From positions 32,001 through 96,000 of the forward strand of contig JBHLMN010000010.1 in the NCBI GenBank assembly GCA_048938105.1: a stretch of DNA of 64,000 nt, written 5' to 3'. This document shows positions 8,193-42,268 of this stretch, piece after piece. The position numbers were made by a program, and so were the translations under genes. How positions within the stretch are numbered: the stretch's first letter is position 1; the number at the start of each line of letters is the position of its first letter. Under the pieces are notes generated by a model. That model was not told where the DNA came from, made no database searches, and saw only the letters and a list, made by a program, of their open reading frames with translations. This DNA is from Promethearchaeota archaeon. Lineage in GTDB: Archaea > Asgardarchaeota > Heimdallarchaeia > Hodarchaeales > Hodarchaeaceae.

Positions 8193-8803
8193 AAGAAATT
8201 TCATTGGCAGAGAAGCGATTTATTTGCCAACAAAGTGGACATTGTTGTTGTGACCCAAACATCATTGTTACATTAACTTTTCGTGACATTTTACGACTTT
8301 TCATTGCTTTATACCGTGATTTCAGATTATTACTCCAAAAAATCACTTTTTATACTTTAGATTCAATAACTTCCCCTCTTATTGAAAAACAAATGGTACT
8401 AAAGACCATTCAAACTAGTGATGGGAAAATTATTCCTGGTTTGAAAAAACACTCGCAAAAAGTATGTGTATTTTTTATCCCCCCGAATTGTTCAATCTAT
8501 TCTTTTAGGCCACTAGCTTGTAGAAATTATCCACTGGCCTTTGTAAAAGAGAATGAACTTATTGTGTCCACATGGGCAAAAAATTCGGAAAAAACATGCC
8601 CTGGTATAGGGAAAGGTTCCCCTCTGTCTCTAAAGAATATAGAACAGAGAGGAAAACAATTTTTCGAAGAGATTGAAAAACATAATCAAGTAGTAAAGGA
8701 ATTGAATATAGAAGCATTAAATAAGCATCCCTTAACTGCTAGAGAAGCTTTATGGACTTTAATAATATATGGAGAAAATGAATTTCAGCAAAAACAAAAA
8801 TAA
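8189..8803 (+). CDS. YkgJ-family (CxxCxxCC) Fe-S/Zn cluster protein
   Basis: FICQQSGHCCC...CVFF....CSIYSFRPLACRNYP...CPGIG. Confidence 0.9.
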   Translation: MKEISLAEKRFICQQSGHCCCDPNIIVTLTFRDILRLFIALYRDFRLLLQKITFYTLDSITSPLIEKQMVLKTIQTSDGKIIPGLKKHSQKVCVFFIPPNCSIYSFRPLACRNYPLAFVKENELIVSTWAKNSEKTCPGIGKGSPLSLKNIEQRGKQFFEEIEKHNQVVKELNIEALNKHPLTAREALWTLIIYGENEFQQKQK

Positions 8804-8991
8804 GTTCCTTTTCTGTGGTTATTTTTATATTTCTTAATTCAATTATTTTTTCTGTCTGTTTATTATATGAAACATATTACGTTATATTATGTATCTTAAG
8901 AAAAAATTTAGAATTTGGTTTTATAGAAAACTTTTGGGATGTTAATTAATGTGCTTAAACCCAAATCCGTTATTGTGAGTTGAAATAGTAA

Positions 8992-10638
8992 ATGAAAACT
9001 TTAGACGAGGTTACAAGATGGGGAAGAGGATCTAAACCTGCGCATGTTAAATTCACTAATGCACTCAAAAATTATATTTTTGAAATGTTAGGAATGGATT
9101 TACAAACAAAGAAGAAAATATATCCACAAAAACGTTCTTTAGATGATTATTTCACCGAACCTCAACTTCCTGAAGAATTTATCAAGAAATTAACACAAGA
9201 ACTTGGCTCAGATCAAGTTTCTAGTGATTTTCAGGAGAGAGTGAAAAACTCAATTGGAAAATCATATCTCGAATTAATTCAAGCACGAATAACTGATATT
9301 CCCTCTTTAGTTGAAGTAGTAGTATATCCTAGGACACATAATGAAGTTGTCAAAGTTATAGAAATAGCCAATGAATTTAAAATCCCTATATCTCCTGTTG
9401 GTGGAGGAACTTCGATGACATTGGGGATTCAAGCTCCTTCAGGTTCAATTGCTGTAAATCTATCTCATATGAATCAAGTATTAATGATTAACAAAGATTC
9501 TCTATATATTACGACTCAGGTTGGTATTTCTGGACCTGAACTTGAGAGCATCTTAAATCACGAGAATCTAACTCTAGGTCACTTCCCTCAATCCTTTAAC
9601 TATAGTTCTGTGGGAGGATGGGTTGTTACACGAGGAGCAGGTCAAAATTCAACTCTTTATGGAAAAATTGAAGATATGATCATGGGATTCAAATTTGTAA
9701 CAGGTATTGGCGAAACCTTAATCACTCGTAAATCTCCTGCAAGAGCTACTGGTCCTGATTTAAATCAGATTATTGCTGGATCTGAAGGAGCTTTTGGTAT
9801 ACTTACTGAGGTTACATTAAGAGTTTCAAAATTACCTCAAAAAACAAAAATGGCAAGTTTTTTCTTTCATGATTTTGAGGAAGGAGTAACAGCTTTTAAG
9901 AATTTACTTCAGGATGGATTCATTCCTGCCATAATACGGCTATATAATGCGGAAGAAACTTTCTCTAGCTTACGTAGTTCAGCGTTAATGAAAGACCCTC
10001 CTAAAGAATCATTTCTCATTCGAGCAGCATTAAAGTACGTCGAATCTCGAGGTTATTCTGAAAAAACCCGTTGTTTGTCTGTTGTGGTTTTTGAAGGAAA
10101 TTCTGACTTGGTAAAAGTAACTCGAAAAAAAACAATAGCTTATGCAAAAAAGGCTGGGGGAATTTCTCTTGGTTCGATTCCTGCAAAATCATGGATTAAA
10201 TCTCGTTATGAATCACCTTTTCTTCGAGATCCTATTATTGATTATGGAATACTTGTCGAAACATTTGAAACGAGTACAACTTGGGAAAATATTGTTCCTC
10301 TGTATAATGCTGTCCAAGAGATTCTTAAACCTGAATGTCCCGTTATCTGGATACATGCGAGTCATTTTTATAAAAATGGGGCGAATTTATACTTCCATCT
10401 TTTTGCTCCTCAAGAATTAAACAATGAAATTGAACAATTTCTTCGGATTAAAAAGAAAATCATTGATACATTCCTTGCGAACGGAGGAACAATAAGTCAT
10501 CATCATGGTGTTGGTAGAACATTCTCTCAATGGCTCTCTCAAGAAATCGGAGTAGAGGGAATTAATATATTACAAAATATTAAGAAAAGCCTTGATCCAA
10601 ATGGAATAATGAACCCTGGAGTATTCGGGTTACAATGA
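8992..10638 (+). CDS. FAD-linked oxidase, alkyldihydroxyacetonephosphate synthase-like
   Basis: PVGGGTS, GHFPQSFNYSSVGGWVVTRGAG...YGKIED, GSEGAFG, SHHHGVG, LDPNGIMNPG. Confidence 0.88.
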   Translation: MKTLDEVTRWGRGSKPAHVKFTNALKNYIFEMLGMDLQTKKKIYPQKRSLDDYFTEPQLPEEFIKKLTQELGSDQVSSDFQERVKNSIGKSYLELIQARITDIPSLVEVVVYPRTHNEVVKVIEIANEFKIPISPVGGGTSMTLGIQAPSGSIAVNLSHMNQVLMINKDSLYITTQVGISGPELESILNHENLTLGHFPQSFNYSSVGGWVVTRGAGQNSTLYGKIEDMIMGFKFVTGIGETLITRKSPARATGPDLNQIIAGSEGAFGILTEVTLRVSKLPQKTKMASFFFHDFEEGVTAFKNLLQDGFIPAIIRLYNAEETFSSLRSSALMKDPPKESFLIRAALKYVESRGYSEKTRCLSVVVFEGNSDLVKVTRKKTIAYAKKAGGISLGSIPAKSWIKSRYESPFLRDPIIDYGILVETFETSTTWENIVPLYNAVQEILKPECPVIWIHASHFYKNGANLYFHLFAPQELNNEIEQFLRIKKKIIDTFLANGGTISHHHGVGRTFSQWLSQEIGVEGINILQNIKKSLDPNGIMNPGVFGLQ

Positions 10639-10647
10639 TTCTCCTCC

Positions 10648-12291
10648 TTAAGGTTTCCAAACTAAACTTTCCTTATATTTCGTTATTTCTTCGTTCTTTT
10701 TCTCAGAGGACCATTCAAGAATTTCAGCCATTCGGTTTGCAATACTTTCAACACAATCTAAGCCCTGTTCTTCAGAAAGCTGAAGCTGGGTTCGTCTGAA
10801 CATGATATCATTTAAGGTTACCGCTTTCTCATGCTTTATATAATAATCAACTTCAGCAAGAATGTATGGACGATTCTTTGAAATTCTTTCCCGCAATAGA
10901 GGATTTAATTCCACCTGTTCACATACTTGGGGATAATTTTTTCCATATCTAAGTAAATGCCTAGCTATGTCCTTAGAGAACTGATACCGAATTGTTAAAT
11001 CTTCCATCGCAATGGTTACCCAATTATCCCAATGCTTCCCTTTTGTAGAGATCCAACCGTAGAGCGGAACCTTATCGGTTCGACACTTACTTTTTTTTCC
11101 CAATACCTCAGCAAACTGATCAACCAATTCCTTTGCCATTGAACGAAATGTAGTATATTTTCCACCCGTGATAGCGAATACATTTGGCTTTATTCTGAAA
11201 ATTTCATGCTTTCGTGAAACGTCAGATTCTGATTTTACATTTGGAGATACTATTAAGGGGCGTATCCCAGAATAAGCACTAACAATATCCTCTCTCTTTA
11301 AAATATCTGGAAAAAGGAAATTTGTAGCTTCAATTAAATATTCAATGTCCTCTTCAAGGACTGGAACAAAATCATAATCTTCTTTGTAATCGGTATCAGT
11401 TGTTCCAATTAAATTGTATTTACCAAAGGGACAAATGAAAAATATTCTACCGTCTCTGATAGGGAGACCTAAGACATAATCCTTCTTATAAATCCTTCTT
11501 GTTATAATATGAATTCCTTTTGTTGGACGTACTCTTTTTGGAACGGAGGGATCAAGATTTTGTACCACTAGATCAGTCCAAGGACCACAAGCTAAAACAA
11601 TTGTACGTGCTGTTATTTCAAATTCCTTATTGTCAAGTTTATCTCGAACATTAACCCCTTTAACTGTTCCTTCCGAGTTTTTGTTGAATGAAATTGCTTC
11701 ACAGTAATTGAGAACATGAGATCCATGCTCTTCAGCAGAGAGAATAACATCTAGTGTCAGCCTCGCATCATCCATTAACCCATCCCCATATAGAACTGCT
11801 CCTTGAAAATTCTCTTCTCTTAATGGTGAGGGAAGGAGTGTTTGTGCTTTTTCAACATTTAAAATCTTATGAAACGTGTAATTTCTAAAATTTGCCAATA
11901 AATCATATACCCATACTCCCTTTCGAAGTTTAGATTTTTTAAAAATCGTATCTGAATAAGCTGGTAAGATAAATTGGATGGGCCTTGAGAGGTGTGGAGC
12001 CATTTCAATTATTCTGTTCCGCTCCAGTGACCCTTCTCGGACAAGACGATACTCTTTCTGAGCAAGATAGCGAATACCCGCGTGAAGTATCTTTGAGGAG
12101 CCACTACTTGTACCATAACCGAAATCATTTTTCTCTATTAAAGCAACCGTGTAACCCCGTAAAACAGCATCACGTACAATACCTGCTCCAGATATTCCTC
12201 CTCCAATCACGAGTATATCAAACTCTTCAGCCTTCATTTTTTCAATTGTCTGTTCTCGATAATTTAGAAGGTCAATTTCCATACTATCCAT
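10648..12291 (-). CDS. glpD: FAD-dependent glycerol-3-phosphate dehydrogenase/oxidase (GlpD/GlpA family)
   Basis: IGGGISGAG, DFGYGTSSGSSKILHAGIRYL, DDARL, GIRPL, GGKYTTFR. Confidence 0.93.
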   Translation of the reverse strand: MDSMEIDLLNYREQTIEKMKAEEFDILVIGGGISGAGIVRDAVLRGYTVALIEKNDFGYGTSSGSSKILHAGIRYLAQKEYRLVREGSLERNRIIEMAPHLSRPIQFILPAYSDTIFKKSKLRKGVWVYDLLANFRNYTFHKILNVEKAQTLLPSPLREENFQGAVLYGDGLMDDARLTLDVILSAEEHGSHVLNYCEAISFNKNSEGTVKGVNVRDKLDNKEFEITARTIVLACGPWTDLVVQNLDPSVPKRVRPTKGIHIITRRIYKKDYVLGLPIRDGRIFFICPFGKYNLIGTTDTDYKEDYDFVPVLEEDIEYLIEATNFLFPDILKREDIVSAYSGIRPLIVSPNVKSESDVSRKHEIFRIKPNVFAITGGKYTTFRSMAKELVDQFAEVLGKKSKCRTDKVPLYGWISTKGKHWDNWVTIAMEDLTIRYQFSKDIARHLLRYGKNYPQVCEQVELNPLLRERISKNRPYILAEVDYYIKHEKAVTLNDIMFRRTQLQLSEEQGLDCVESIANRMAEILEWSSEKKNEEITKYKESLVWKP

Positions 12292-30627: not shown

Positions 30628-31842
30628 TTATTTAATGAACAAATTCAAGAAACGCATAAACGGAGATATCAGAGACACCTTCCAAGGTACAGCACAATGC
30701 ACTACTTTATTGATATCTGATGAACTTAAGCGATTCAAATACCATTGAACACGATTATCTCCACCTTCCGAGATTATATCAAAGAATTGACGCAATTTAT
30801 AGGCGCTTTTAAACATCTTCAACATTTGAACTCGCCATTTTGTCTGATAATCTGATAATGGAACTTTTTCTCTAAAAAAACGCAGAATAGAGCTCGTTGC
30901 AATTGAACCTGCCACCATTGACGGAGGGATTCCACCACCAACGCTAGAAACAACTTGACATGCTGCATCACCAACTAAGAGAGTTCTTGTCTTTAAATCA
31001 ACAGTCTCTTGAAAGGGAGGACCTACAGGAACGACACCTGCAATTGTTTGTTCGATGTGTGCATTCTTGAGAATTTTACTTGCAATAGGATGAATATTTA
31101 TCAGGTTAGACAACGCTTTAGAAACATTCATGTCATTTTTTAACATAGGAAGGCGTACTCCAGCACCAACATTTGCTGTGTTCCGACTCTTGGGAATGAT
31201 CCAAGCATAAGCTCCAGGTGCATATTTTTCACCAAAAAACATCTGTACATCAGTTGAGTCATACTCATCTTCGATGTCAGTCATTAAATGTTGTTTTACA
31301 ATGACAAAATGCTTATCGGGTCTTTTATTAGCCAAACCTGTCCATTTGGCTACACGAGAACTAACCCCATCTGCTCCAACGATAACTCGAGGTGTAACTT
31401 GTAAAGATCTATCATTATCCCGAACAACTGTGATCTTATTACTTATCATACCAACGGCGCAAGCAGATGTCCAAACTTCAGCTCCATATTCTTTACCTAC
31501 TTCAATTAAATGAGTGTTCCAGTTCCCACGATGAAGAGTATACCCCTGAAAAGGAGTTCTAATGACATTTCTTTCTGGAGAGAAAAAGGAAATAGAATGA
31601 GTATATGTACTGATAAATTGTTTATCAAATGTGAAAAACGCTTGAGTATTTGGGACATCAGGCATTAAAGTAGCCAGTTCTTTAGGAGCTGGCATAAACT
31701 CACCACATTGAACAGGAAATCCAGGTTTTGGCCGATGATCAATAGCTAAAATCGAGATCTCTGACCCAGCCGACAGAGCCAATTTTGATAGAACTGTTGC
31801 ACCTGCAGGCCCTAAACCTACAATAAGAACATCCACATCCAT
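30628..31842 (-). CDS. Geranylgeranyl reductase family FAD protein
   Basis: VGLGPAG, PVQCGE, GADG, APGAYAWIIPK, VGDAA, GGGI. Confidence 0.92.
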   Translation of the reverse strand: MDVDVLIVGLGPAGATVLSKLALSAGSEISILAIDHRPKPGFPVQCGEFMPAPKELATLMPDVPNTQAFFTFDKQFISTYTHSISFFSPERNVIRTPFQGYTLHRGNWNTHLIEVGKEYGAEVWTSACAVGMISNKITVVRDNDRSLQVTPRVIVGADGVSSRVAKWTGLANKRPDKHFVIVKQHLMTDIEDEYDSTDVQMFFGEKYAPGAYAWIIPKSRNTANVGAGVRLPMLKNDMNVSKALSNLINIHPIASKILKNAHIEQTIAGVVPVGPPFQETVDLKTRTLLVGDAACQVVSSVGGGIPPSMVAGSIATSSILRFFREKVPLSDYQTKWRVQMLKMFKSAYKLRQFFDIISEGGDNRVQWYLNRLSSSDINKVVHCAVPWKVSLISPFMRFLNLFIK

Positions 31843-31906
31843 AAGATGACAACTCAAAGTACGAGAAGCGAATATGAATCTAATATTTAGCGGAAAGGGA
31901 TTTTGT

Positions 31907-33457
31907 TCAAGGTGGTAAAAGATTTCCAGCTGCAGAAAGGGCAAATTCAAGGAATGGCCCAGGAAGTATACCAATAATTATTATGAGAAGAACTGAAATT
32001 CCAATACTAAGCTGATATGATAATGGAATACTAAAAGGTGTGATTCTTTCCACTGGAATAACTGTAACATCATCTCGATCCTCTAAAGGTGTGTCTATTA
32101 TCATTAGCTTGATCACCCGAATATAGTAGAAGATTGAGATGGCACTATTAATGATTCCAATTATAGCTAACCAAACAAGGTTTGCATATATAGCTGCAAA
32201 AAATAGTAATACCTTAGAAACAAAACCAGCTAACGGGGGAATGCCCAAAAGGCTTAACAATGCGATTGTTAAACCAAAAGTTAACCATGGGTGTTTTTTT
32301 CTTAAACCTACATAATCTTCGATCTTCTCACTATGAATAGAAAACGTAATAACAATCACTGCTGTAAAAGCAACGATTTTCATCAATGCATGAGTGAGGA
32401 TATGCATCTCAGCGGCAGCAATAGAAAATTCTGCAACAGAAAAGTCTAGATTTCCAATAACTGAAGAGATTGGGCTACTGGTCGCTGCAGCTAATGCAAT
32501 GAGAATATACCCTGCGTGGGCAATACTAGAATAAGCTAACATTCTTTTAATATTCTCTTGGACTAAAGCGACTACATTTCCTAAAGTCATTGTGAGAATT
32601 GCAAGTAATGCAAACAAATAACCCCAAATAACATCTATTTCAGTCAGACCAGCAACAATAATACGGAATACAGCTACAAAACCTAGAGCTTTGGATCCTG
32701 CTGCTAAAAAGGTTGTAATGGTTGTAGGTGTTCCCTGATATACATCAACAGCCCATGCATGAAATGGAACAACAGCCATCTTGTATCCAAAACCAACTAA
32801 TAAGAACATCAAAGCAAGAAGGTGAAATGGGGAGTAGTCTGAAGTATCTGCAAACTTCATAATGACCCGATCAATGCTTGTTGAACCCACAATCCCATAA
32901 ACTAATGAGATACCAAACAGTATAAAGGCTGAAGACATGGCACCAATTAGAAATAATTTCAAGGCACTCTCACCGGTTTCTGGTCGGCTTTTCTGAAAAG
33001 CTGCTAAAGCATATACAGGAAGACTTCCCAATTCCCATGCAACAAACAAGATTAATAGATCATTTGCTGCAGCAACCAACAACATTCCAATCGTTGCAAA
33101 TATCAAAAGAATATAATATATTCCTACATTCTTTTCGGAATTCATATAATCAATACTCGATGTTGAAACAAATAGCAACACTATAAGAAAGATAATGGCA
33201 AAAAAACGAGAGAAATTATCTATAACAAAAAGACCTGTTGTACTTGAAATGTCAAAGAGGTTAGCTGCATTCCCAAATACATAAACGATACCAGTATCTA
33301 TCCCGATAATTATGTAATATAAGGAAAAAAGACTTCCTATTATGGTAACAGGTGCAAAAATTCTGTGATCCATATCGAAAGCTTCTAGGACTATACAAAT
33401 AATGATAGTTCCAATTAACGATAAAAAAGGAAAAAATATAACCAGGGGATCACTCAT
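31907..33457 (-). CDS. nuoN: Complex I-like subunit N (antiporter-like)
   Basis: WELGSLP, ESALK, YKMAVVPFHAWAVDVYQG, KRMLAYSSIAHAGY, SLLGIPPLAGF. Confidence 0.93.
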   Translation of the reverse strand: MSDPLVIFFPFLSLIGTIIICIVLEAFDMDHRIFAPVTIIGSLFSLYYIIIGIDTGIVYVFGNAANLFDISSTTGLFVIDNFSRFFAIIFLIVLLFVSTSSIDYMNSEKNVGIYYILLIFATIGMLLVAAANDLLILFVAWELGSLPVYALAAFQKSRPETGESALKLFLIGAMSSAFILFGISLVYGIVGSTSIDRVIMKFADTSDYSPFHLLALMFLLVGFGYKMAVVPFHAWAVDVYQGTPTTITTFLAAGSKALGFVAVFRIIVAGLTEIDVIWGYLFALLAILTMTLGNVVALVQENIKRMLAYSSIAHAGYILIALAAATSSPISSVIGNLDFSVAEFSIAAAEMHILTHALMKIVAFTAVIVITFSIHSEKIEDYVGLRKKHPWLTFGLTIALLSLLGIPPLAGFVSKVLLFFAAIYANLVWLAIIGIINSAISIFYYIRVIKLMIIDTPLEDRDDVTVIPVERITPFSIPLSYQLSIGISVLLIIIIGILPGPFLEFALSAAGNLLPP

Positions 33458-33493
33458 GGATTCAATTCACCTTGATTTTTCACTTTTTATATT

Positions 33494-35011
33494 TCAGATT
33501 GGCCAATTTGCAGTTGCCATTAAATCCAATAAAAGTGCTGGAAATACTCCAAGTAGTAATGTAAAGAAACATAGAAATCCAAAGACGGCATATTGAGACC
33601 AGTGTGATATATCGTGCACATGTTCTAATTCAGGATTGACATCACCAAATACTGTCCTTTGTAACAACCATAAATAATATGCTGCGGTAAAAATAATCCC
33701 GAGGACTCCAATGAAAGCTAATCCTCTGCCAAATTCACCCCAATTGAACAAAGCAACAAAAGCAAGCAATTCAGACCAAAATCCAGCTAAACCTGGTAAG
33801 CCAGCACTAGCAAACGATCCATAAACCATGACTCCCGCAGTCACAGGCATATTCTTAGCTATCCCTTTAAGTTTGGGTATATCTCGAGTGTGTGCAGCAT
33901 GTCCAATAGTACCAGCAACAAAGAACATTAGGGGAGAGATGATTCCATGGGCAATTTGCATGTACATTGCACCAGCGAATCCTATAGGGGATTGAGTTGC
34001 ACATCCAAGAAGAACAATTCCCATGTGGCCAACTGACGAATAAGCAACAAGACTTTTCATATCAACTTGACGAAGAGCTACCCAAGCCCCATATAATAAT
34101 GAAATCAATCCAATAATAGCAACTAACCAGGCAAACTCTGATAAAGCATCAGGTAAGAACCAACCACCCATTCTCAACAGGCCATAACCACCCATTTTCA
34201 GGAGTAATCCAGCAAGAATCATTGAACCTGGTGTTGGAGCTTCAACGTGAGCTAAGGGTAACCAAGTATGGAATGGAACGCTGGGTACTTTCACTATAAA
34301 ACCAAATAATAAGGCTAGAAAGATCAATAGAACAAATGGCTCTGCTCCAAATTGGTCAGCCATATTAGTTAACTCAGTAAATGAAAAAGTGCCAATACCT
34401 GTTCCAGTATATTTTGATGATTCTAACCAAAGACCTATTATACCTAAAATCATGACTAAAGACGCAACATGTGTATAAATAAAGAAGTATAATGCTGCAT
34501 ATTCCTTTTTAGGACCACCCCAAATCCCGATGAGGAAAAACATTGGAACCAAGACTAATTCCCAAGCAACATAAAATATGATGAAATCTGTTGCAAGAAA
34601 TGTTCCAATGAGGCCTGTTTCAAGAAGCATTATCATTGCATAATATGCGGGTTCTCTCTCATGAATTTCTTTGAATGAAGCCAGGACTGCTACTAAGAAT
34701 ACAAACCCACTTAATAAAACCAATGGTAAGCTTAATCCATCAACTCCTAGCGAATAACTCATTCCAATAGCTTCAATCCAAGGAATTTCTTCTATTAAAT
34801 CCCAACTACCAGTAGGAGGTTGTTCATACATCATTAAGGCTATAATGGCTAAAACCATGACAACAGCACTGATGATAAATGCAAACCACTTTGAAAGCTC
34901 ATTACGGACACGTCCTACTAACCATGTTGGAAATGCTGCCAAAATTGGAAGTAAGAAGATCAGAGATAGTATTCCGATATTGAGATCACCAAAACTTAAT
35001 TGTGTCAACAT
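33494..35011 (-). CDS. nuoM: Complex I-like subunit M (antiporter-like)
   Basis: LGVDGLS, WELVLVPM, VKVPSVPFHTWLPLAHVEAP, LLKMGGYG, AYSSVGHMG. Confidence 0.95.
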   Translation of the reverse strand: MLTQLSFGDLNIGILSLIFLLPILAAFPTWLVGRVRNELSKWFAFIISAVVMVLAIIALMMYEQPPTGSWDLIEEIPWIEAIGMSYSLGVDGLSLPLVLLSGFVFLVAVLASFKEIHEREPAYYAMIMLLETGLIGTFLATDFIIFYVAWELVLVPMFFLIGIWGGPKKEYAALYFFIYTHVASLVMILGIIGLWLESSKYTGTGIGTFSFTELTNMADQFGAEPFVLLIFLALLFGFIVKVPSVPFHTWLPLAHVEAPTPGSMILAGLLLKMGGYGLLRMGGWFLPDALSEFAWLVAIIGLISLLYGAWVALRQVDMKSLVAYSSVGHMGIVLLGCATQSPIGFAGAMYMQIAHGIISPLMFFVAGTIGHAAHTRDIPKLKGIAKNMPVTAGVMVYGSFASAGLPGLAGFWSELLAFVALFNWGEFGRGLAFIGVLGIIFTAAYYLWLLQRTVFGDVNPELEHVHDISHWSQYAVFGFLCFFTLLLGVFPALLLDLMATANWPI

Positions 35012-35044
35012 TTGTCTTCAACCTTTATTCTTTTTTTCCTTCTT

Positions 35045-35266
35045 TTAGAGGGGTATCACCCCTGCTACAATAATCGCAATTAATATAAGAGAAACCGCCC
35101 CTAATAGAGTATAGAGAGCATAATTTTCTACTACTCCTGTTTGTATTCGACGTAAATAACCCCCTGTTTTCATAACTCCTTTAGCTGAGTTTCGAATAAT
35201 ACCATGATCAATTACTTTTTCTAGAATTCGTTGAATACCTCTAGCAAATATTGTTGATTCAGACAT
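35045..35266 (-). CDS. Mini-NuoL: stand-alone C-terminal lateral helix + terminal TM of NuoL
   Basis: EKVIDHGII...GGYLRRIQTGVVENYALY + TM matches the NuoL/ND5 C-terminus; sits at the nuoL position between nuoK and nuoM; own ATG and purine-rich leader. Confidence 0.85.
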   Translation of the reverse strand: MSESTIFARGIQRILEKVIDHGIIRNSAKGVMKTGGYLRRIQTGVVENYALYTLLGAVSLILIAIIVAGVIPL

Positions 35267-35281
35267 GAGTAATTCTTCCTT

Positions 35282-35596
35282 CTAACCTTTAAGTTCAACA
35301 AAATCTGTAGCATCTATTGTCCCGTGTGTTCGAAAGATCGATAAAATTATCCCAAGGCCAACGGCTGCCTCCGCTGCTGCCAATGCAATGCTGATAATAA
35401 CAGCCACATGCCCAGTGACAAAAGTAACATCATTATATAATGCAAAAATGGCAAAATTAATGTTAGCAGAGTTTATCATAATTTCAATTGATATCAACAT
35501 TCGTACTGCTGATTGAGACTTAATGAACCCTGCGAAACCAATCAAGAATAAAATAAGGGCAATTCCAACAAAAATCCAAGCATCTAAGTCAATCAT
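35282..35596 (-). CDS. nuoK: Complex I-like subunit K
   Basis: SIEIMINSAN, AAAEAAVGLGI. Confidence 0.95.
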   Translation of the reverse strand: MIDLDAWIFVGIALILFLIGFAGFIKSQSAVRMLISIEIMINSANINFAIFALYNDVTFVTGHVAVIISIALAAAEAAVGLGIILSIFRTHGTIDATDFVELKG

Positions 35597-36156
35597 ATAT
35601 CTTCTACCTCTTTTTTAACTAGATAAACACTACCAAGCATTGCTGCAAGTAAAAGGAATCCTAACACTAATATTGTCCCCCCATGAACCGTGAATAACAT
35701 CTCAGCCACATCTCCTATTAGATCTATTTCACTAGGTTTGTTGGTCGGATTTTGCCTCAGGTTTTGCCAAAATATAGGACTGACTTGTGAAAGTACAAAA
35801 AGTGCGATGATAAGTAGAATAAATCCCCCCGCAAAACTTAATCGCCAATCTAATAATTTCAAACCTTTTTGTTCCTCGTACATGGCTTCTTTTCCCGAAA
35901 GAGTAATCGCAAAAACAATTAACACAGTGATTCCTCCAGCATATACAATCATCTGAATAACTAAGAGAAGAGATGACTCAGCATATAGCAAAAAAATCAT
36001 GGCAACCCCCAATAAGGTGAATACTAGCCAGAGTACTGCATGGTAGACACTTTTAACTGTAACGGCTAAGAATGCAGAACCTATAGTATATCCAATTAAT
36101 ATAAAGAAAAATAATAATTCTAGAGTTTGAAATAACTCGTTAGGAATTAAAGTCAT
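35593..36156 (-). CDS. nuoJ: Complex I-like subunit J
   Basis: HAVLWL, QMIVYAGGITVLIVF, LLAAMLGSV. Confidence 0.93.
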   Translation of the reverse strand: MTLIPNELFQTLELLFFFILIGYTIGSAFLAVTVKSVYHAVLWLVFTLLGVAMIFLLYAESSLLLVIQMIVYAGGITVLIVFAITLSGKEAMYEEQKGLKLLDWRLSFAGGFILLIIALFVLSQVSPIFWQNLRQNPTNKPSEIDLIGDVAEMLFTVHGGTILVLGFLLLAAMLGSVYLVKKEVEDI

Positions 36157-36785
36157 TTTAAATCATCCTCTTCCTTATTCTTAGAAGTTAAAAACTCCCC
36201 AATTGATTTTCCATATGTTTCTACATACTCTTGTTGTTGTAATTCATGTTCTTTGGGGTAATATAACTTATAAACATCGTATAAATCTAAATAAGTGTAA
36301 TATAATTCTTCTTTATTTGAAGTAGCCCCATCAAATCCAGCTGAATGATGTAAAGCTTCATACCTACACGCTTCGACACAAAAGCCACAATACATACATC
36401 GTCCGATAAATATCTGAGGAGATTCTAATGGCCTCTTCTTTTCCCAGTGAGGTGGTTGAGGATCTAGTAGCTTCATTTCTATGCATTTATTGGGACAAGC
36501 TCTTTCACAGGCTTTACAACCAGTGCAATTCATAAGATTTAAAGCTATTAATCCACGAAAATTAGGCGAAATATGGGGAGTGTGACTGAAAACGTCCGAA
36601 AGGGATAGATCTCTATCTAAAACTGTTTGTCCTTTTTTAGCGAGTTCTTTTGGAAAATAAATTGTATTTTTGTTTCTACGGTCACCATCAGGTATAGTAA
36701 TTGGTTTTTTTAAGAAGACATGTCGGAAGATATAAGCCAACGGACGCGTAATAAATAAATTTGGGATATAACGAAAATTTACCAT
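36153..36785 (-). CDS. nuoI: Complex I-like subunit I (2x[4Fe-4S])
   Basis: FRG, CTGCKACERACP, CMYCGFCVEAC. Confidence 0.93.
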   Translation of the reverse strand: MVNFRYIPNLFITRPLAYIFRHVFLKKPITIPDGDRRNKNTIYFPKELAKKGQTVLDRDLSLSDVFSHTPHISPNFRGLIALNLMNCTGCKACERACPNKCIEMKLLDPQPPHWEKKRPLESPQIFIGRCMYCGFCVEACRYEALHHSAGFDGATSNKEELYYTYLDLYDVYKLYYPKEHELQQQEYVETYGKSIGEFLTSKNKEEDDLK

Positions 36786-37955
36786 TTAAGAAATCGCTCC
36801 GAAAAATTGGGGATAGTACAGCATAACGAATACAATATAGACTATATTTAGAATTGCTAGCGGAATTAATCCCTTCCATCCAATATCTAGTAACTGGTCT
36901 GGTCTTACCCTTGGTAATGAAGCACGTACCCAGATATACAAGAAAGCGAATACCCACAACTTCACTAAAATAATCATAAAAGCAAGAAGATGAATTGTCT
37001 CAATTTCAGACTTAAAGAGATTAAAAGGTAAATAAGGCCCTCCCCAAAAGAGAAAGACCCCTATAAATGCCCCGATCAAGAGGATAAAATATTCAGTCGC
37101 CATAGACATCATATATCGAAAACCAGTAAGTTCAGTTCGCCAACCCATAACTAATTCTGCCTCAGCTTCAGGAATATCAAATGGAACTCTCTCTGTTTCT
37201 GCTGTTAATGCAGCCATGAAGACAAAAAATCCTATAGGCATCAGAATAGCAAAAGGAAAAAGTAGATCAGATTGTTGTTTAGAAATTTCAATAAATGAGA
37301 AAGAGTTGGTCACTAATACGACAGATGCAATAGAGAGCATCAGTGGAATCTCGTAACTAATCATTTGAACAGCTGATCGAAATCCTCCTATGAGAGAATA
37401 TTTATTGTTTGAAGACCATCCTGTGATAAGTACACCAACAGGATATAAAGAAAAAAGAGCAAATATGAGTAAGAAACCTACAGCAGGATCAGCAACTACC
37501 AAAGATGCCCCTAAGGGTAGTAATGCCCCTAGTATGAATGGAGGAGCTACTATGAATGCAAAAAACCCAACATTAAAAGGAAATTTGTCTGCTTTTTCGG
37601 GTACAATATCTTCCTTGGAGAAAAATTTCAGGAACTCGGCAATATTCTGTAATAATCCAAATTTCCATGTTCTGCCGAAGATATGACCATAGTTAAAATC
37701 GATAAAGACTGGTCCTCGTGCTGTCCAAGCCCTTCCTGACGAAATCTTTCTTTCTAACCAGATTAACATAATTGTATTGACAATTAAAAATACAAGGATA
37801 GTTGTCATTTCCAGTGAATCGATTAAAAATGATCTTATTGGGCCTACCTGTTCGTCGGGAATAAGTCCGAAATCAAGTAAAATTGGTACGATCCCTGGCC
37901 AGAAATCCAAGCCATCAACAAGCCAATCATATAAACCATAACCCATAATCTTCAC
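36786..37955 (-). CDS. nuoH: Complex I-like subunit H
   Basis: WLERKI, GWSSNNKYSLIGG, QMISYE, RVPFDIPEAEAELV, LPRVRPDQL. Confidence 0.96.
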   Translation of the reverse strand: MKIMGYGLYDWLVDGLDFWPGIVPILLDFGLIPDEQVGPIRSFLIDSLEMTTILVFLIVNTIMLIWLERKISSGRAWTARGPVFIDFNYGHIFGRTWKFGLLQNIAEFLKFFSKEDIVPEKADKFPFNVGFFAFIVAPPFILGALLPLGASLVVADPAVGFLLIFALFSLYPVGVLITGWSSNNKYSLIGGFRSAVQMISYEIPLMLSIASVVLVTNSFSFIEISKQQSDLLFPFAILMPIGFFVFMAALTAETERVPFDIPEAEAELVMGWRTELTGFRYMMSMATEYFILLIGAFIGVFLFWGGPYLPFNLFKSEIETIHLLAFMIILVKLWVFAFLYIWVRASLPRVRPDQLLDIGWKGLIPLAILNIVYIVFVMLYYPQFFGAIS

Positions 37956-39044
37956 CTATCGGTCTATTTCTCCCATGCAAAGGTCTATACTTGCAACAGT
38001 AGGAGCTATATCTGCCACTTTAGCCCCTTTAAGAATATAATTACATATTGCTAAATTGGAATAAGCAGGAGATTTTATCTTCACGCGATAAGGAACTTGA
38101 TCGTCATTCCCAATAATGTAAAAAGCACCTTCTCCACGGGGATCTTCTGTTCGAAAGTAAACATCCCCGTTAGGTAACTTTCGAGGAGGTTTTTGGTATA
38201 TTTCCCCTTCCGAAGGTATTTGATCGAGTGCCTGCCGAATTATCCTAATAGATTGAAACATCTCTTCCATTCGAATCTCATATCGAGCATAGCAATCTCC
38301 AGCAGTACGCACCGGAATATCAAATTCAAGTTCATCATATACTAAATATGGTTCAATCTTCCGTATATCAGCCTGAATTCCTGAAGCACGTAAAACAGGA
38401 CCAGTAACACCAAGATTTAACGCGTCATTTTTAGTTATGATTCCCACTTTCTCACTCCGGAGCATAAACACCTTTGAGTCATCCAAGATAGCCCGATATT
38501 CCTTTAATCGTTCTTCAAGATAATGAGTGAGATTGTAACAGTCTTCTTTGAATCCATGTGGTAGATCACCACGTAATCCCCCTGCAGTGAAGTAATTATA
38601 CATCATTCGGGAACCAGTAACATGTTCTAAGAGATCTAATACGTATTCTCTTTCCCGATATGCGATAACTAACATGGTTACTACTCCGACATCAGTAGAA
38701 TAAGCTGAAAGCCAGGTCAAGTGAGAAGCAATTCGTTGAAGTTCTAACATGATTGTACGAATATATTGAGCCCGTTTACTCACCACAACTCCCATTAACT
38801 TCTCAACAGCCATAGTATAACTAGCCTCCCAACTCATCGCTGAAACGTAACAGAGGCGGTTTGTTAAGGGTTGAAAAGCATTATAGGGACGTGACTCGGC
38901 AATTTTTTCAATCATCCTAAAAACATAACCAATTAACACCTCTGCATCAATTACAAGTTCACCTGCAGTCTTTACTTTCAAAGTCCACAAGCCATGATTT
39001 ACTGGGTGCTGAGGGCCCATATGGATGTACATCTGTTCACTCAT
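37956..39044 (-). CDS. nuoD: Complex I-like subunit D
   Basis: MGPQHP..HG, RLCY, ELQRIASH, GPVLRASG, PRGE, GEIDR; no NiFe CxxC pairs. Confidence 0.95.
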   Translation of the reverse strand: MSEQMYIHMGPQHPVNHGLWTLKVKTAGELVIDAEVLIGYVFRMIEKIAESRPYNAFQPLTNRLCYVSAMSWEASYTMAVEKLMGVVVSKRAQYIRTIMLELQRIASHLTWLSAYSTDVGVVTMLVIAYREREYVLDLLEHVTGSRMMYNYFTAGGLRGDLPHGFKEDCYNLTHYLEERLKEYRAILDDSKVFMLRSEKVGIITKNDALNLGVTGPVLRASGIQADIRKIEPYLVYDELEFDIPVRTAGDCYARYEIRMEEMFQSIRIIRQALDQIPSEGEIYQKPPRKLPNGDVYFRTEDPRGEGAFYIIGNDDQVPYRVKIKSPAYSNLAICNYILKGAKVADIAPTVASIDLCMGEIDR

Positions 39045-39061
39045 GATAATTATAACTCCCA

Positions 39062-39571
39062 TTATTTAGGATGAGGTTTGAAAGAAAAAGGTTTTTCAGG
39101 TAATTGATAATTACGGCGCATGGGATGCAGTTCTGAAATGTGTTTATGCTCATAATCATCCCATTCTTCAGGAAGAAGTAACCGTTTTAAATTCGGATGA
39201 TTTTTTATGTTTATTCCAAAAAGATCAAACAGTTCTCGTTCGTGCCAATTTGCAGATTCCCATATAGGAGTTATTGTTGGGATGGCTGGGTTTTCTCGGT
39301 CACTAACCTTGACATGAACTTGTAAAACTGTTGGATCACCATCCCATCTATCAATATGGTAGACTACCTCAAAATATGTTTCATAATCTACTCCTGAAAT
39401 CGCTTCTAAGGATGTAAATTTTAACTCTGAAGCAATATATCTCATAATATCTACCAAATCATCTACAGGGATTTGTAACCGAATACGATGAGACTCAGAT
39501 ATTTCTGCTATTGATAATTTTGTATCAAATCTCTCTTTCAATTGTTTTAGATGATTCTCTGTAACAGACAT
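39062..39571 (-). CDS. nuoC: Complex I-like subunit C
   Basis: ANWHERELFDLFGI...HPNLKRLLLP...HPMRR. Confidence 0.95.
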   Translation of the reverse strand: MSVTENHLKQLKERFDTKLSIAEISESHRIRLQIPVDDLVDIMRYIASELKFTSLEAISGVDYETYFEVVYHIDRWDGDPTVLQVHVKVSDRENPAIPTITPIWESANWHERELFDLFGINIKNHPNLKRLLLPEEWDDYEHKHISELHPMRRNYQLPEKPFSFKPHPK

Positions 39572-40254
39572 TATTTTGCCTCTTTTAATAGCTTTTTACG
39601 ACGTAATCGTAAATCAATCATTGGGGGATCCCGTTCATAAAATTCTCTAGGCTCCTCAAGCAATGGTTCAGGTATGAAAACTCCGTCTGATCTTATTTTT
39701 TCTTGGAGGCGATGTATCCCAGCCCACATGGCCTCTGGACGAGGAGGACATCCAGGAACATATACATCTACTGGAATTACCTGATCTGCACCTTCTAGAA
39801 TGGTCGGTGCCTGCCAGAATGGTCCTCCAGAAATTGCGCATTCACCAGTCGCTAAAACCCATTTAGGAGCTGGCATTTGATCGTAGACATCCCGAAGGCG
39901 GGGAATGAATTTTATACTTACAGGACCATTAAGCCATAATAGATCACAATGCCTAGGGCTAGCTCGAGCTAAAATTCCAATCCGTTGAGTATCATAGCGA
40001 CTAGCCATTGTTGCACCCATTTCTATGGCACAACATTTCATTCCAATATATACAGGATAAAGGCTACATCTCTGAGCCCAATTACGAAGCCAATTGATCA
40101 TAACAGTTACAAAATTTCGTGAATGTGCTAAGACTACATTAGGCATTGGTTCATAAATCTCTAATTCTCCCAGCTCTTCACATTCCTTCTTGATTCCCCA
40201 GGTTTTTTGACGTGATGTATGGAAATATGATTTTAATCGATCCATTTTCGACAT
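39571..40254 (-). CDS. nuoB: Complex I-like subunit B
   Basis: CCAIEM, SPRHCD, QMPAPKWV, GECAISGG, PVDVYVPGCPPRPE. Confidence 0.96.
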   Translation of the reverse strand: MSKMDRLKSYFHTSRQKTWGIKKECEELGELEIYEPMPNVVLAHSRNFVTVMINWLRNWAQRCSLYPVYIGMKCCAIEMGATMASRYDTQRIGILARASPRHCDLLWLNGPVSIKFIPRLRDVYDQMPAPKWVLATGECAISGGPFWQAPTILEGADQVIPVDVYVPGCPPRPEAMWAGIHRLQEKIRSDGVFIPEPLLEEPREFYERDPPMIDLRLRRKKLLKEAK

Positions 40255-40259
40255 AATTC

Positions 40260-40661
40260 TTACACCCACTTCATTGTTCCTTTTTTCATCCAGAAGAACA
40301 ACCCAATTAAGATAAATGAGGCAAATACAGCCATAATAAAAATTACAGAATATAATATTTGAATAGAATATTCTTCTTTAATGATTTGGAAAGCATAAGC
40401 CCAGAGGAGAAAGAAAATGGTTAAGATATCAAAAAGCACAAATACGACTGCAAAGGTAAAGAATTGAGCATTGAATCGAACTTGGGCATCTCCAATTGGT
40501 TTCTCTCCGCACTCATAAGTCGTAGTTGCCGCTTTTAAGCGTGGAATATTGGGTGCCAAAAGATATTGTACAATCTTAATGACAATAGGACTTGCGAGCC
40601 CTGCTACAAGAAAGATTCCAAAATGAGTTAGTTGAAGATCAATCATGTGATATCCCATCAT
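40260..40661 (-). CDS. nuoA: Complex I-like subunit A
   Basis: YECGEKP, FVLFDI, KKG...W; start at 40661 or 40646. Confidence 0.93.
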   Translation of the reverse strand: MMGYHMIDLQLTHFGIFLVAGLASPIVIKIVQYLLAPNIPRLKAATTTYECGEKPIGDAQVRFNAQFFTFAVVFVLFDILTIFFLLWAYAFQIIKEEYSIQILYSVIFIMAVFASFILIGLFFWMKKGTMKWV

Positions 40662-40825
40662 TGAATATGTTTTTCTTTCAGGTTGGAGTACATCGGGGCA
40701 CTGAATTATGATAATCCGCAAAAAGTGGTGGTTATTTATAATTTTGTCTTACTTACCCATCAAACGTAAACATTGTAGACATTCATTTATTAATCTTGAT
40801 AAAAAAGCCTGTTGTGGTTTTAAGG

Positions 40826-42268
40826 GTGAAGATTCTATTCCTTGTTCCACCTACAAAACAAAAGGAAGTAACAAAGTATCAACTTGCCTTTTTAAATTTT
40901 ACAGCACCACCTTTAGGGTTGGGATATATTGCTGCTGTGTTAGAAGAAAATGGTTTTTCTAAAGTTCGAATATTAGATTGCTCCGTCTTAGAGTATTCAC
41001 CTCAAACCTATCGTAAGTATTTGAAGCAATATAATCCAGATATCGTTGGAATTCAAACACTTACACCTAATCTTTACAATGCTCTAAACTCAGCTCAAAT
41101 TGCAAAAAAAGAGGGTGTTCCAATCGTCGCTCTGGGAGGATATCATCCTACAGCAATGCCAACGGAAAGTTTACAATTATCTCATGGTAATGTTGATGTT
41201 GTTTTCAGGGGAGAAGCTGAATACTCTATGTTAGAATTTGTCCAAAATATTGACAAAGGTCGTGATTGGACACAAATCAAAGGTATTTCCTATTTTAACA
41301 AAGACAATCAAGTTATTCACAATAAACCAGCTCCTCCCATAAAAAACCTAGATGACCTTCCGTTACCAGCGCGTCATCTACTTCCAATGGACAAGTACCG
41401 AATTTTTGGATCATCTTTTCCAGCAACTTCGGTTATAACTAGCCGAGGGTGCCCTTTCTCTTGTGATTTTTGCAGTGTTTCAGCATTCTATGGGGCTAAG
41501 TGGCGCCCTCGCTCACCCGAGAAAATTGCTGAAGAAATCCGCTTTTTACGAGAAACTATGGATATAAAAGCAACAGCGTTCGTAGATGACTTATTTTTTA
41601 TCTCAAAAAAAAGAGTAAGAAGATTAGTTAGTGCACTCTCAAAAATCAAAGATATCTATTGGGGTGCAACGACTCGTGCTGATGTAGGGGAACTTGAATT
41701 ACTCACCCTAATGAGAAAAGCAGGCTGTCGCTTAGTTTTTGTAGGTGTCGAATCTGGGAGTCAAACAATTTTAGACCAAATACGAAAACGGACCACTATC
41801 AATCAAGTGGAACGATATTTTGATAACGCTAAGAAAGCACATATGGACACATTGGCTTCATTATCATTTGGATTTCCTGGTGAAACTAAACAAACGATCA
41901 TCAATACAGTTACTTGGGTTATTAATCGGTTAGATCCTGAATTGGCATTATTCACTCTAGCAACCCCTTATCCTGGCACAGAATTCTATCAAAAGATGTT
42001 AAACAAAGGTATGATAAAAGAACATGATTATAGCAAATATAATCTCTTTCATCCTATTACTGAAATTACCGGTATATCACGAGAAGAAATGAAAATCATG
42101 ACGAAATGGGCATATAAACAATTCTATCTACGGCCAAACAAAATTATCCAAAATACATTAAGGGAATTAAGATATTCTATGGAGAGTTATGGTTTCAGGC
42201 AATTTCTTTACAATAGTAGTGTATTTGCGAAAGGAATTATCAATATGAGGATTTTAACTTCAATGTAA
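40826..42268 (+). CDS. B12-binding-domain radical SAM protein
   Basis: PPLGLGYIAA, GGYHPT, GEAE, TSRGCPFSCDFC, GVESG, TPYPGT; divergent from nuo operon. Confidence 0.93.
   Translation: MKILFLVPPTKQKEVTKYQLAFLNFTAPPLGLGYIAAVLEENGFSKVRILDCSVLEYSPQTYRKYLKQYNPDIVGIQTLTPNLYNALNSAQIAKKEGVPIVALGGYHPTAMPTESLQLSHGNVDVVFRGEAEYSMLEFVQNIDKGRDWTQIKGISYFNKDNQVIHNKPAPPIKNLDDLPLPARHLLPMDKYRIFGSSFPATSVITSRGCPFSCDFCSVSAFYGAKWRPRSPEKIAEEIRFLRETMDIKATAFVDDLFFISKKRVRRLVSALSKIKDIYWGATTRADVGELELLTLMRKAGCRLVFVGVESGSQTILDQIRKRTTINQVERYFDNAKKAHMDTLASLSFGFPGETKQTIINTVTWVINRLDPELALFTLATPYPGTEFYQKMLNKGMIKEHDYSKYNLFHPITEITGISREEMKIMTKWAYKQFYLRPNKIIQNTLRELRYSMESYGFRQFLYNSSVFAKGIINMRILTSM

Follow-up and report, generated by a model that had tools for sequence, protein, structure and literature searches.

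The window analysed here, a stretch of 64,000 nucleotides (nt) from a Promethearchaeota archaeon of the family Hodarchaeaceae (assembly GCA_048938105.1, contig JBHLMN010000010.1, positions 32,001 to 96,000), contains an operon for a complex I-like enzyme in which the place of nuoL, the gene for the distal proton-pumping subunit, is occupied by an open reading frame (ORF) of only 73 amino acids (aa). This ORF, referred to below as mini-nuoL or the stub, is what remains of the operon's own nuoL: two in-frame internal deletions have removed the antiporter body and most of the lateral helix and left the last repeat of that helix together with the final transmembrane (TM) helix, TM16. Two full-length nuoL paralogues, La and Lb, are encoded elsewhere in the same genome, and the distal pump has probably moved rather than been lost. 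A preliminary description of the locus had proposed that the complex dropped its distal pump and kept the clamp; the second half of this proposal stands, in that the C-terminal end of NuoL has been kept as a separate gene, but the first half is not supported, as La and Lb are present at full length. Replacement of the operon nuoL in trans by La and Lb is considered likely. The fuller reading, in which the pump has been displaced and the stub still works as an anchor in the membrane arm, is assigned a probability of roughly 0.4.

Origin of the 73-residue frame

The gene order nuoA-B-C-D-H-I-J-K-[73 aa]-M-N, as initially described together with gaps of 15 and 33 nt around the short frame, is borne out by ORFs and by matches to Pfam and NCBIfam profiles. 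Mini-nuoL (P0001; positions 35045-35266, on the minus strand like all genes of the operon) starts 15 nt after the stop of nuoK (35282-35596, 104 aa; PF00420) and stops 33 nt before the start of nuoM (33494-35011, 505 aa; PF00361 and Oxidored_q5_N, TIGR01972). Its product gave no match to Pfam, so that the antiporter core domains Proton_antipo_N and Proton_antipo_M were not found in it; its matches are to the C-terminal ends of the NuoL model NF005141 (positions 552-612 of 615, E 2.6e-5) and of the FpoL model (positions 612-665 of 669). Over its last 58 residues it shares 90-95% identity with the C-terminus of the 740-770-aa NuoL proteins of Hodarchaeales and Heimdallarchaeia metagenome-assembled genomes (MAGs). 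The product has two amphipathic stretches and a single TM helix at residues 53-71 (mean Kyte-Doolittle value 2.81), and its AlphaFold model, with a predicted local distance difference test score (pLDDT) of 82, consists of a helix at residues 3-20, a break at His-Gly and a second helix at residues 23-70. The model match and the synteny thus uphold the initial assignment of the frame as a C-terminal piece of NuoL, comprising the end of the lateral helix and TM16, as a separate gene in the nuoL slot.

The derivation of this piece can be followed codon by codon in the nearest relative, G003, which has an intact nuoL of 746 aa. Comparison by blastn of the window with nuoK-L-M of G003 yields three collinear blocks of 88-92% identity, of which the first comprises the end of nuoK, the intergenic leader and ATG-TCT-GAA-T, the second 43 nt equivalent to codons 596-609, and the third the last 56 codons, the spacer and the start of nuoM. 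Mini-nuoL is therefore an exact mosaic of codons 1-3, 596-609 and 691-746 of the G003 gene, a result with which the protein alignment agrees. Codons 1-3 (MSE; 35258-35266) are the ancestral nuoL codons 1-3, and codons 4-17 (STIFARGIQRILEK; 35216-35257) correspond to NuoL residues 596-609, a short helix just ahead of the long lateral helix. Residues 18-48 (VIDHGIIRNSAKG...RRIQTGVVEN; 35123-35215) represent the last repeat unit of the lateral helix, with amino acids identical to those of NuoL in G003, L016 and G009, and residues 53-71 (35054-35110) form the TM helix equivalent to TM16. The first deletion, of 1776 nt, took 592 codons (4-595, the whole antiporter body; junction at about 35257), and the second, of 243 nt, took 81 codons (610-690, most of the lateral helix; junction at about 35215). 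Both lengths are multiples of three, with 1 nt of microhomology at each junction; the ancestral ATG and leader are retained, the frame is open across both junctions, and no frameshift, stop or lost start marks it as a pseudogene. The separate ATG remarked on at the outset is thus the ancestral nuoL start, and the reported absence of antiporter debris between nuoK and nuoM reflects the deletion of codons 4-595. The suggested comparison with relatives turned up the full gene between nuoK and nuoM, in the same synteny, in L016 (GCA_016840285.1; 739 aa), G003 and G009 (757 aa). The origin of the 73-aa ORF can be regarded as settled.

That the deletions reflect mis-assembly or a binning error, with a normal operon nuoL present in the organism, has a practically negligible probability, even though the genome of the window (G000) is a MAG with 7.25% estimated contamination and nuoL paralogues could mislead an assembler. 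Both junctions are spanned, with 0 differences, by a Logan contig (717 nt, 34764-35480) assembled from a second sample of the same study, and a mangrove metagenome of another study contributes a 339-nt contig (35186-35524) that bridges junction 1 and extends 29 nt past junction 2. In the same mangrove run, a 90%-identical contig departs from the window exactly at 35215, into the sequence expected of an intact nuoL, and evidently is that of a relative carrying the full gene. Because independent contigs from two studies bridge the junction, an assembly break at 35000-35300, for which the preliminary description had advised looking, is ruled out. Moreover, with so little microhomology the junctions offer no collapsible repeat, and the same architecture, with another junction, recurs in the relative G014, in a Joint Genome Institute (JGI) contig and in a Logan contig.

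Relocated paralogues and parallel deletions

A family search of the whole assembly identified six PF00361 genes: nuoM and nuoN from the window, one L-like and one N-like gene on contig C4, and La and Lb on contig C50. The full-length nuoL elsewhere in the genome that the preliminary description had named as a finding against its proposal is therefore present, in two copies. These lie in tandem (La, 722 aa, L013:1747-3915; Lb, 749 aa, L013:4352-6601), carry both PF00662 and PF00361, and match the NuoL models NF005141 and TIGR01974. Every invariant column of a 49-sequence NuoL alignment is retained in both, including the pump motifs (the TM5 glutamate and the Lys/Asp motifs of TM7 and TM12) and the helix motifs D688, E689, D693, G695, R698 and QTG, and the ratio of non-synonymous to synonymous substitution rates (dN/dS) between G000 and G014 is 0.19-0.21, as under purifying selection. 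Each has also kept a lateral helix and TM16 of its own. The lateral helix of Lb has the ancestral length; La differs from Lb by exactly one 26-aa helix unit, which is missing from La. In a tree of 50 NuoL proteins, the two form one clade (support of 99 in the Shimodaira-Hasegawa-like approximate likelihood ratio test, SH-aLRT) that is nested, on long stems, within the operon nuoL of the genus and near the G003/L016 group, from which we infer that both descend from this genus's own operon nuoL. A conserved non-coding gap of about 400-437 nt separates the two genes.

La and Lb belong to an island in which a P-type H+-ATPase gene, a 124-aa gene, La and Lb follow one another. The ATPase is of the type IIIA plasma-membrane H+-efflux class (TIGR01647, 1040 bits), and the 124-aa gene encodes a soluble protein without an assigned family, the only one of these genes found in G003, where it occurs in another context. 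In G014 the pair is found at L018:6001-8163 and 8564-10822, and the JGI contig L084 repeats the G014 arrangement La-Lb-ClC. The island DNA (L013:1-6601 compared with L018:4181-10850) is 84-92% identical between G000 and G014, intergenic parts included, and its synonymous divergence (dS) is 0.34-0.47, against 0.9-1.7 for the nuo genes of the same two species. An island dS so far below that of the nuo genes points to a recent exchange of the island between the two lineages, after their split.

The distribution of these elements was surveyed in 21 species of the genus, G000 and 20 others. In 15 of the 20, an open frame of about 750-775 aa with a NuoL C-terminus lies between nuoK and nuoM; the other five are G014 with its stub, G006 with an in-frame stop, G013 with a contig end, G007 with a scaffold gap and G001, which gave no match. 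Short frames of about 75 aa occur only in G000 and G014, and tandem extra frames of 720 and 750 aa are likewise confined to these two species. The G014 operon shares the layout K-[73 aa]-M-N, but its junction is another one: a single in-frame deletion of 1998 nt has joined NuoL codons 1-14 to the D-D-R-V... start of the last helix unit; this junction is also found in the JGI contig L014 and the Logan contig L015. In an RpoB tree, G000 groups with G003 and G007 (SH-aLRT 96) and G014 with G009 (98), and both G003 and G009 have an intact nuoL and no La-Lb pair, the closed G009 genome containing exactly three PF00361 genes. From the RpoB grouping, the intact sister species and the differing junctions, it follows that stub and pair occur together in two separate lineages whose deletions were independent. 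Since G014 contains no PF00361 proteins other than La, Lb, NuoM and NuoN, La and Lb are not part of an Mrp system there. A third mini-nuoL variant (P0069, 120 aa, L047:5001-5363; GCA_048883125.1, JBHLQX010000224.1) joins NuoL codons 1 to about 68 to the 3' boundary seen in G014, with a deletion of 1833 nt, and its nuoJ-K is 94% identical to that of G014.

Several apparent irregularities of nuoL in the genus were examined and rejected. The "410-aa nuoL" of G007 is interrupted by a scaffold gap of Ns inside the gene (L020:7713-8945) in a genome listed as a single contig, the G001 contig ends just after nuoK, the short nuoL of G013 is a frame cut by a contig end, the "internal TAA" of G005 is the normal stop, and a supposed nuoL-nuoM fusion in L086 contains a TAA stop. 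Use of G007 as an outgroup for dating the G000 deletion was also abandoned, its nuoL 3' end being of a different allele type; that end is of the G009 type although G007 is closest to G000 by RpoB, and nuoL alleles seem to recombine across species. In G006, an in-frame TAA (L019:7705-7707) replaces the CAA of relatives (the Gln of GIQRILEK) just before the lateral helix and would divide nuoL into a 621-aa pump body and a piece with the helix and TM16; it could be a nonsense mutation or a consensus error.

A search of the representative library returned only 19 matches, among which several small ones were set aside as misleading: P0002 (75 aa on a 995-nt contig) reads like a fragment inside a full-length gene, P0006 is cut by the contig start, P0067 lies on a 511-nt contig and has an N-terminal half unlike NuoL, and P0080 is a garbled fragment. 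A metagenome scan with the stub alignment, which returned 50 loci, produced no new mini-nuoL alleles, all six of the six complete genus-level matches being full length. In unrelated taxa, at about 40-46% identity (L049:632-826, L095 and L102), there are short frames that consist of the NuoL helix end and TM16 only, one of them a 64-aa ORF with a 4-nt overlap with the upstream partial gene; these may be frameshifts or real splits.

Probable displacement of the pump and possible role of the stub

The preferred reading combines displacement of the pump with continued use of its anchor. An island with two nuoL derivatives would have arrived, and if La and Lb were able to dock on NuoM, the body of the operon nuoL would have become redundant and open to deletion, as happened independently in two lineages. 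The stub is predicted to be still translated and inserted, as an anchor made of amphipathic helix and TM helix, into the old TM16 slot of the membrane arm, where it would stabilise the N-M module, at least when La and Lb are unattached. The replacement step is deduced from co-occurrence and descent; restriction of the La-Lb pair to the mini-nuoL species points to replacement in trans instead of the lowered H+/e- stoichiometry that the preliminary description had put forward. Several observations weigh against this reading. The co-occurrence of pair and stub amounts to only two independent contrasts, La and Lb adjoin an H+-ATPase and not nuo genes, and their helix and anchor region evolves about three times faster than that of operon NuoL (dN/dS 0.31-0.38 versus 0.10-0.11). 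An Lb anchored in the ancestral slot would face competition from the stub, and counting of helix repeats to place La, Lb and the stub together in the arm gave no conflict-free arrangement. A prediction of the complex of NuoN with mini-nuoL provided no answer (score 0.01) and is counted as evidence neither way.

Some of these observations are accommodated by the two-antiporter complex originally proposed, which would run on NuoM and NuoN with the stub as clamp, at a lower H+/e- ratio, while La and Lb serve elsewhere, for example in stand-alone cation/proton exchange beside the island H+-ATPase. The pair does lie outside the nuo operon and travels with the H+-ATPase, in G014 also with a ClC gene; its anchor region is under relaxed constraint, and it is the stub that retains the anchor. 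Such an enzyme could be functional, as E. coli complex I lacking NuoL, or only TM15-16 of NuoL, is active with about half the proton stoichiometry, approximately 2H+/2e- (Steimle 2011, to the extent that it is cited in PMC7447434), and shorter membrane arms have been proposed for Heimdallarchaeial complex I-like enzymes in a preprint that does not mention the lateral helix (bioRxiv 10.1101/2024.07.04.601786). Nevertheless, this proposal offers no reason why the nuoL body should have been lost only in the two lineages that gained La and Lb. A stand-alone role for La and Lb is disfavoured because G014 has no antiporter-like, MrpD-type partner for them and because both, derived from operon nuoL, keep a long lateral helix with the anchor motifs, useful only for clamping antiporter-like neighbours; the two-antiporter complex is accordingly judged unlikely. 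Still less probable is a modular "gearbox," in which the stub would hold NuoN-NuoM alone, giving either a short two-pump complex or one with La or Lb bolted on. La and Lb, with helices one 26-aa repeat apart, would then be interchangeable distal pumps on a transferable island with an H+-ATPase, a doubtful arrangement that, if true, would represent natural modular control of H+/e- stoichiometry in the closest archaeal relatives of eukaryotes.

For the stub itself, a role at the protein level is given even odds. All four deletions (1776, 243, 1998 and 1833 nt) are in frame, an outcome with a chance of about 1 in 81 if frame were irrelevant, and their 3' boundaries, at residue 691 in G000 and at residue 688 in both G014 and L047, coincide with the first residues of the last helix repeat, the same place at which La's own one-unit deletion ends. 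The second deletion in G000 shortened the helix in register. Between G000 and the matching G003 segments there are 16.5 synonymous and 7.5 non-synonymous changes (dN/dS 0.13), with 0 changes in the helix unit, and between the G014 and L014 stubs, which share a junction, dN/dS is 0.2 (binomial P of about 3e-4 to 1e-3 against neutrality), a test confounded by a recombination breakpoint.

These data must be set against the possibility, considered rather unlikely, that La and Lb replaced the operon nuoL just as in the preferred reading but that the stub is a relic without protein function, a young or slowly decaying remnant whose frame stays open only because ribosomes have to travel from the nuoL start almost to nuoM, be it so that translation is coupled or so that nuoM-N are spared transcription polarity. 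The G000 deletion may be very recent, and in intact genes the same 57 codons have a dN/dS of about 0.05, which the stub, at 0.13-0.4, exceeds severalfold. G014 and L014 diverge by 3-4% through nuoJ-K as far as the junction, and thereafter by 8% in the helix unit, 19% in TM16 and about 10-13% in nuoM/N; in its last 57 codons, L014 differs at 20-22 positions from the full-length L016 and G009 alleles and at 20 from G014. Given this breakpoint near the junction and the equal nearness of L014 to full-length alleles, part of the G014/L014 divergence may predate the deletion, which weakens the selection test. The G014 stub carries four substitutions in the conserved helix (I>F, A>V, V>L and N>K) at sites at least 90% conserved in full-length NuoL, none of which are paralleled by such changes in the full-length proteins of G003, L016 and G009. 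In L047, the peptide is degenerate: the helix unit carries changes (8 of 35), invariant sites are altered, TM16 is destroyed by a 2-nt frameshift, and the old stop has gone with a 22-nt deletion. Its frame nonetheless extends from the native start as far as a new stop shortly ahead of the nuoM ribosome-binding site. This pattern fits a frame kept open for translation through to nuoM and not for its product, and on account of it a working anchor and a relic stand at similar odds.

Coupling alone, however, leaves unexplained why independent deletions ended no more than three codons apart, where the last repeat begins, or why the second deletion in G000 shortened the helix in register. For termination-reinitiation, the 33-nt gap before nuoM is also long, and dN/dS lies well below 1 in both lineages. 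Thus the selection analysis recommended in the preliminary description did give values below 1 (0.13-0.2), but their meaning is qualified by the recombination breakpoint, the changes at conserved sites and the decayed L047 copy. As a separate observation, the jump in divergence in L014:900-1260 relative to L017 (G014) is located right after the junction, which suggests that homologous recombination, with the crossover lying within the stub, has spread the deletion allele.

The role of the NuoL lateral helix as a coupling rod or clamp has been argued mostly from laboratory truncations. Here, one Hodarchaeales genus supplies natural experiments in which the pump body was lost, with the last repeat and TM16 kept, at least twice independently, along with two relocated nuoL paralogues that are one helix repeat apart and one decaying variant for comparison; three natural alleles and the two paralogues are thus available for comparison. 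Provided that the stub is produced and bound, the anchor serves a structural purpose apart from that of the pump, and the distal pump module could be swapped like a cassette, even between species. If it is no more than a relic, the locus still provides a clean case of paralogue displacement inside a respiratory operon, and also a warning, in that a tally confined to the operon's nuo genes would lead one to expect, mistakenly, a shortened complex I of low stoichiometry in Asgard genomes.

Related systems and the surrounding genes

The stub is homologous by direct descent to the C-terminal extension of NuoL/ND5/Nqo12 and occupies the same slot between nuoK and nuoM, but TM1-15 and about 80% of the helix are missing from it, and its 73 aa make up a polypeptide of their own. 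Among working systems, the nearest parallel is cyanobacterial NDH-1, whose alternative distal subunits NdhF1/F3/F4 and NdhD1-D4 are encoded away from the main ndh operon, each NdhF carrying its own helix and anchor, with no stub remaining in the ndh operon. In both cases distal antiporter-like paralogues would be supplied in trans and are possibly exchangeable; the arrangement described here differs in having two NuoL-type genes in tandem beside an H+-ATPase and a stub left in the operon. In architecture, the stub can be likened to MbhI of the membrane-bound hydrogenase, a small separate subunit with a lateral amphipathic helix and a TM helix. MbhI, however, is an old dedicated subunit, whereas the stub is a recent nuoL deletion product in one genus.

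A 26-aa insertion in the lateral helix accompanies one additional pump subunit both in the 2M complex I of Nitrospira and in the Manganitrophaceae Complex_I_3, and in the "green" complex I of rhizobia NuoL is replaced by two MrpD-like subunits (PMC9040806). As in these enzymes, two antiporter-like subunits would here replace NuoL, and the step between La and Lb is likewise 26 aa; in those complexes, however, the extra subunits are encoded in the operon and there is no NuoL stub, whereas La and Lb are here putative members of the complex. Complexes without the distal pump or clamp are represented by the E. coli mutants discussed above and by plant CI*, which lacks ND4/ND5 (PMC7447434), but these are laboratory mutants or assembly intermediates, whereas the present deletion is natural, fixed in wild populations and has kept only the clamp end. 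The ND5 lateral helix reaches ND2 (PMC7447434), and MrpA braces Mrp with the same helix (PMC7419157). No account of a nuoL stub occurring alongside nuoL paralogues encoded in trans was found in the literature searched.

In this genus the NuoL lateral helix is itself unusually long; it measures about 113 aa from the DDLY to the ENYAL motif, whereas the figure for cyanobacterial NdhF1 (6hum_F) is about 58 aa. A tandem 27-aa unit (WIExNIFD...CGLSK / WWDDxVID...CGLAKA) accounts for the additional length, as seen in the G003 nuoL (L041:7045-9285; alignments A1/A2). In an AlphaFold model of the full G003 NuoL, the lateral helix has pLDDT below 50, so that the geometry and reach of the extra repeats cannot be read from it. 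Despite some 80 Angstrom of extra helix, the closed G009 genome encodes only L, M and N.

The remaining genes of the operon, all with Pfam or NCBIfam matches, are nuoA (40260-40721), nuoB (39571-40269), nuoC (39062-39571), nuoD (37956-39062), nuoH (36786-37955), nuoI (36153-36785), nuoJ (35593-36156) and, after nuoM, nuoN (31907-33457, 516 aa; PF00361, TIGR01770). Of the 11-subunit set of complex I, subunits A, B, C, D, H, I, J, K, M and N all have Pfam matches, and L is present in cis only as the stub and in trans as full-length La and Lb; no nuoEFG genes were found within the operon. NuoD is of the complex I (quinone) type, with N- and C-termini that contain no CxxC and no NiFe cysteine motifs. 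Directly downstream of nuoN lies a gene of the geranylgeranyl reductase family (30628-31974, minus strand), which also follows nuoN in all relatives examined, among them G003, G009, G014, L014, G006 and G013. Upstream of nuoA, a B12-binding radical SAM gene (40796-42268, plus strand) is divergently oriented, as it is in L016 and G009.

A second complex I-like operon is present in G000 on contig C4:48000-63000 (L012), preceded by a malic enzyme gene and a NifX-like gene. It encodes B, a fused CD with NiFeSe_Hases matches, H, I, a split J, K, L and M/N, its two antiporter-like subunits being the 656-aa L and a single M/N of 510 aa.

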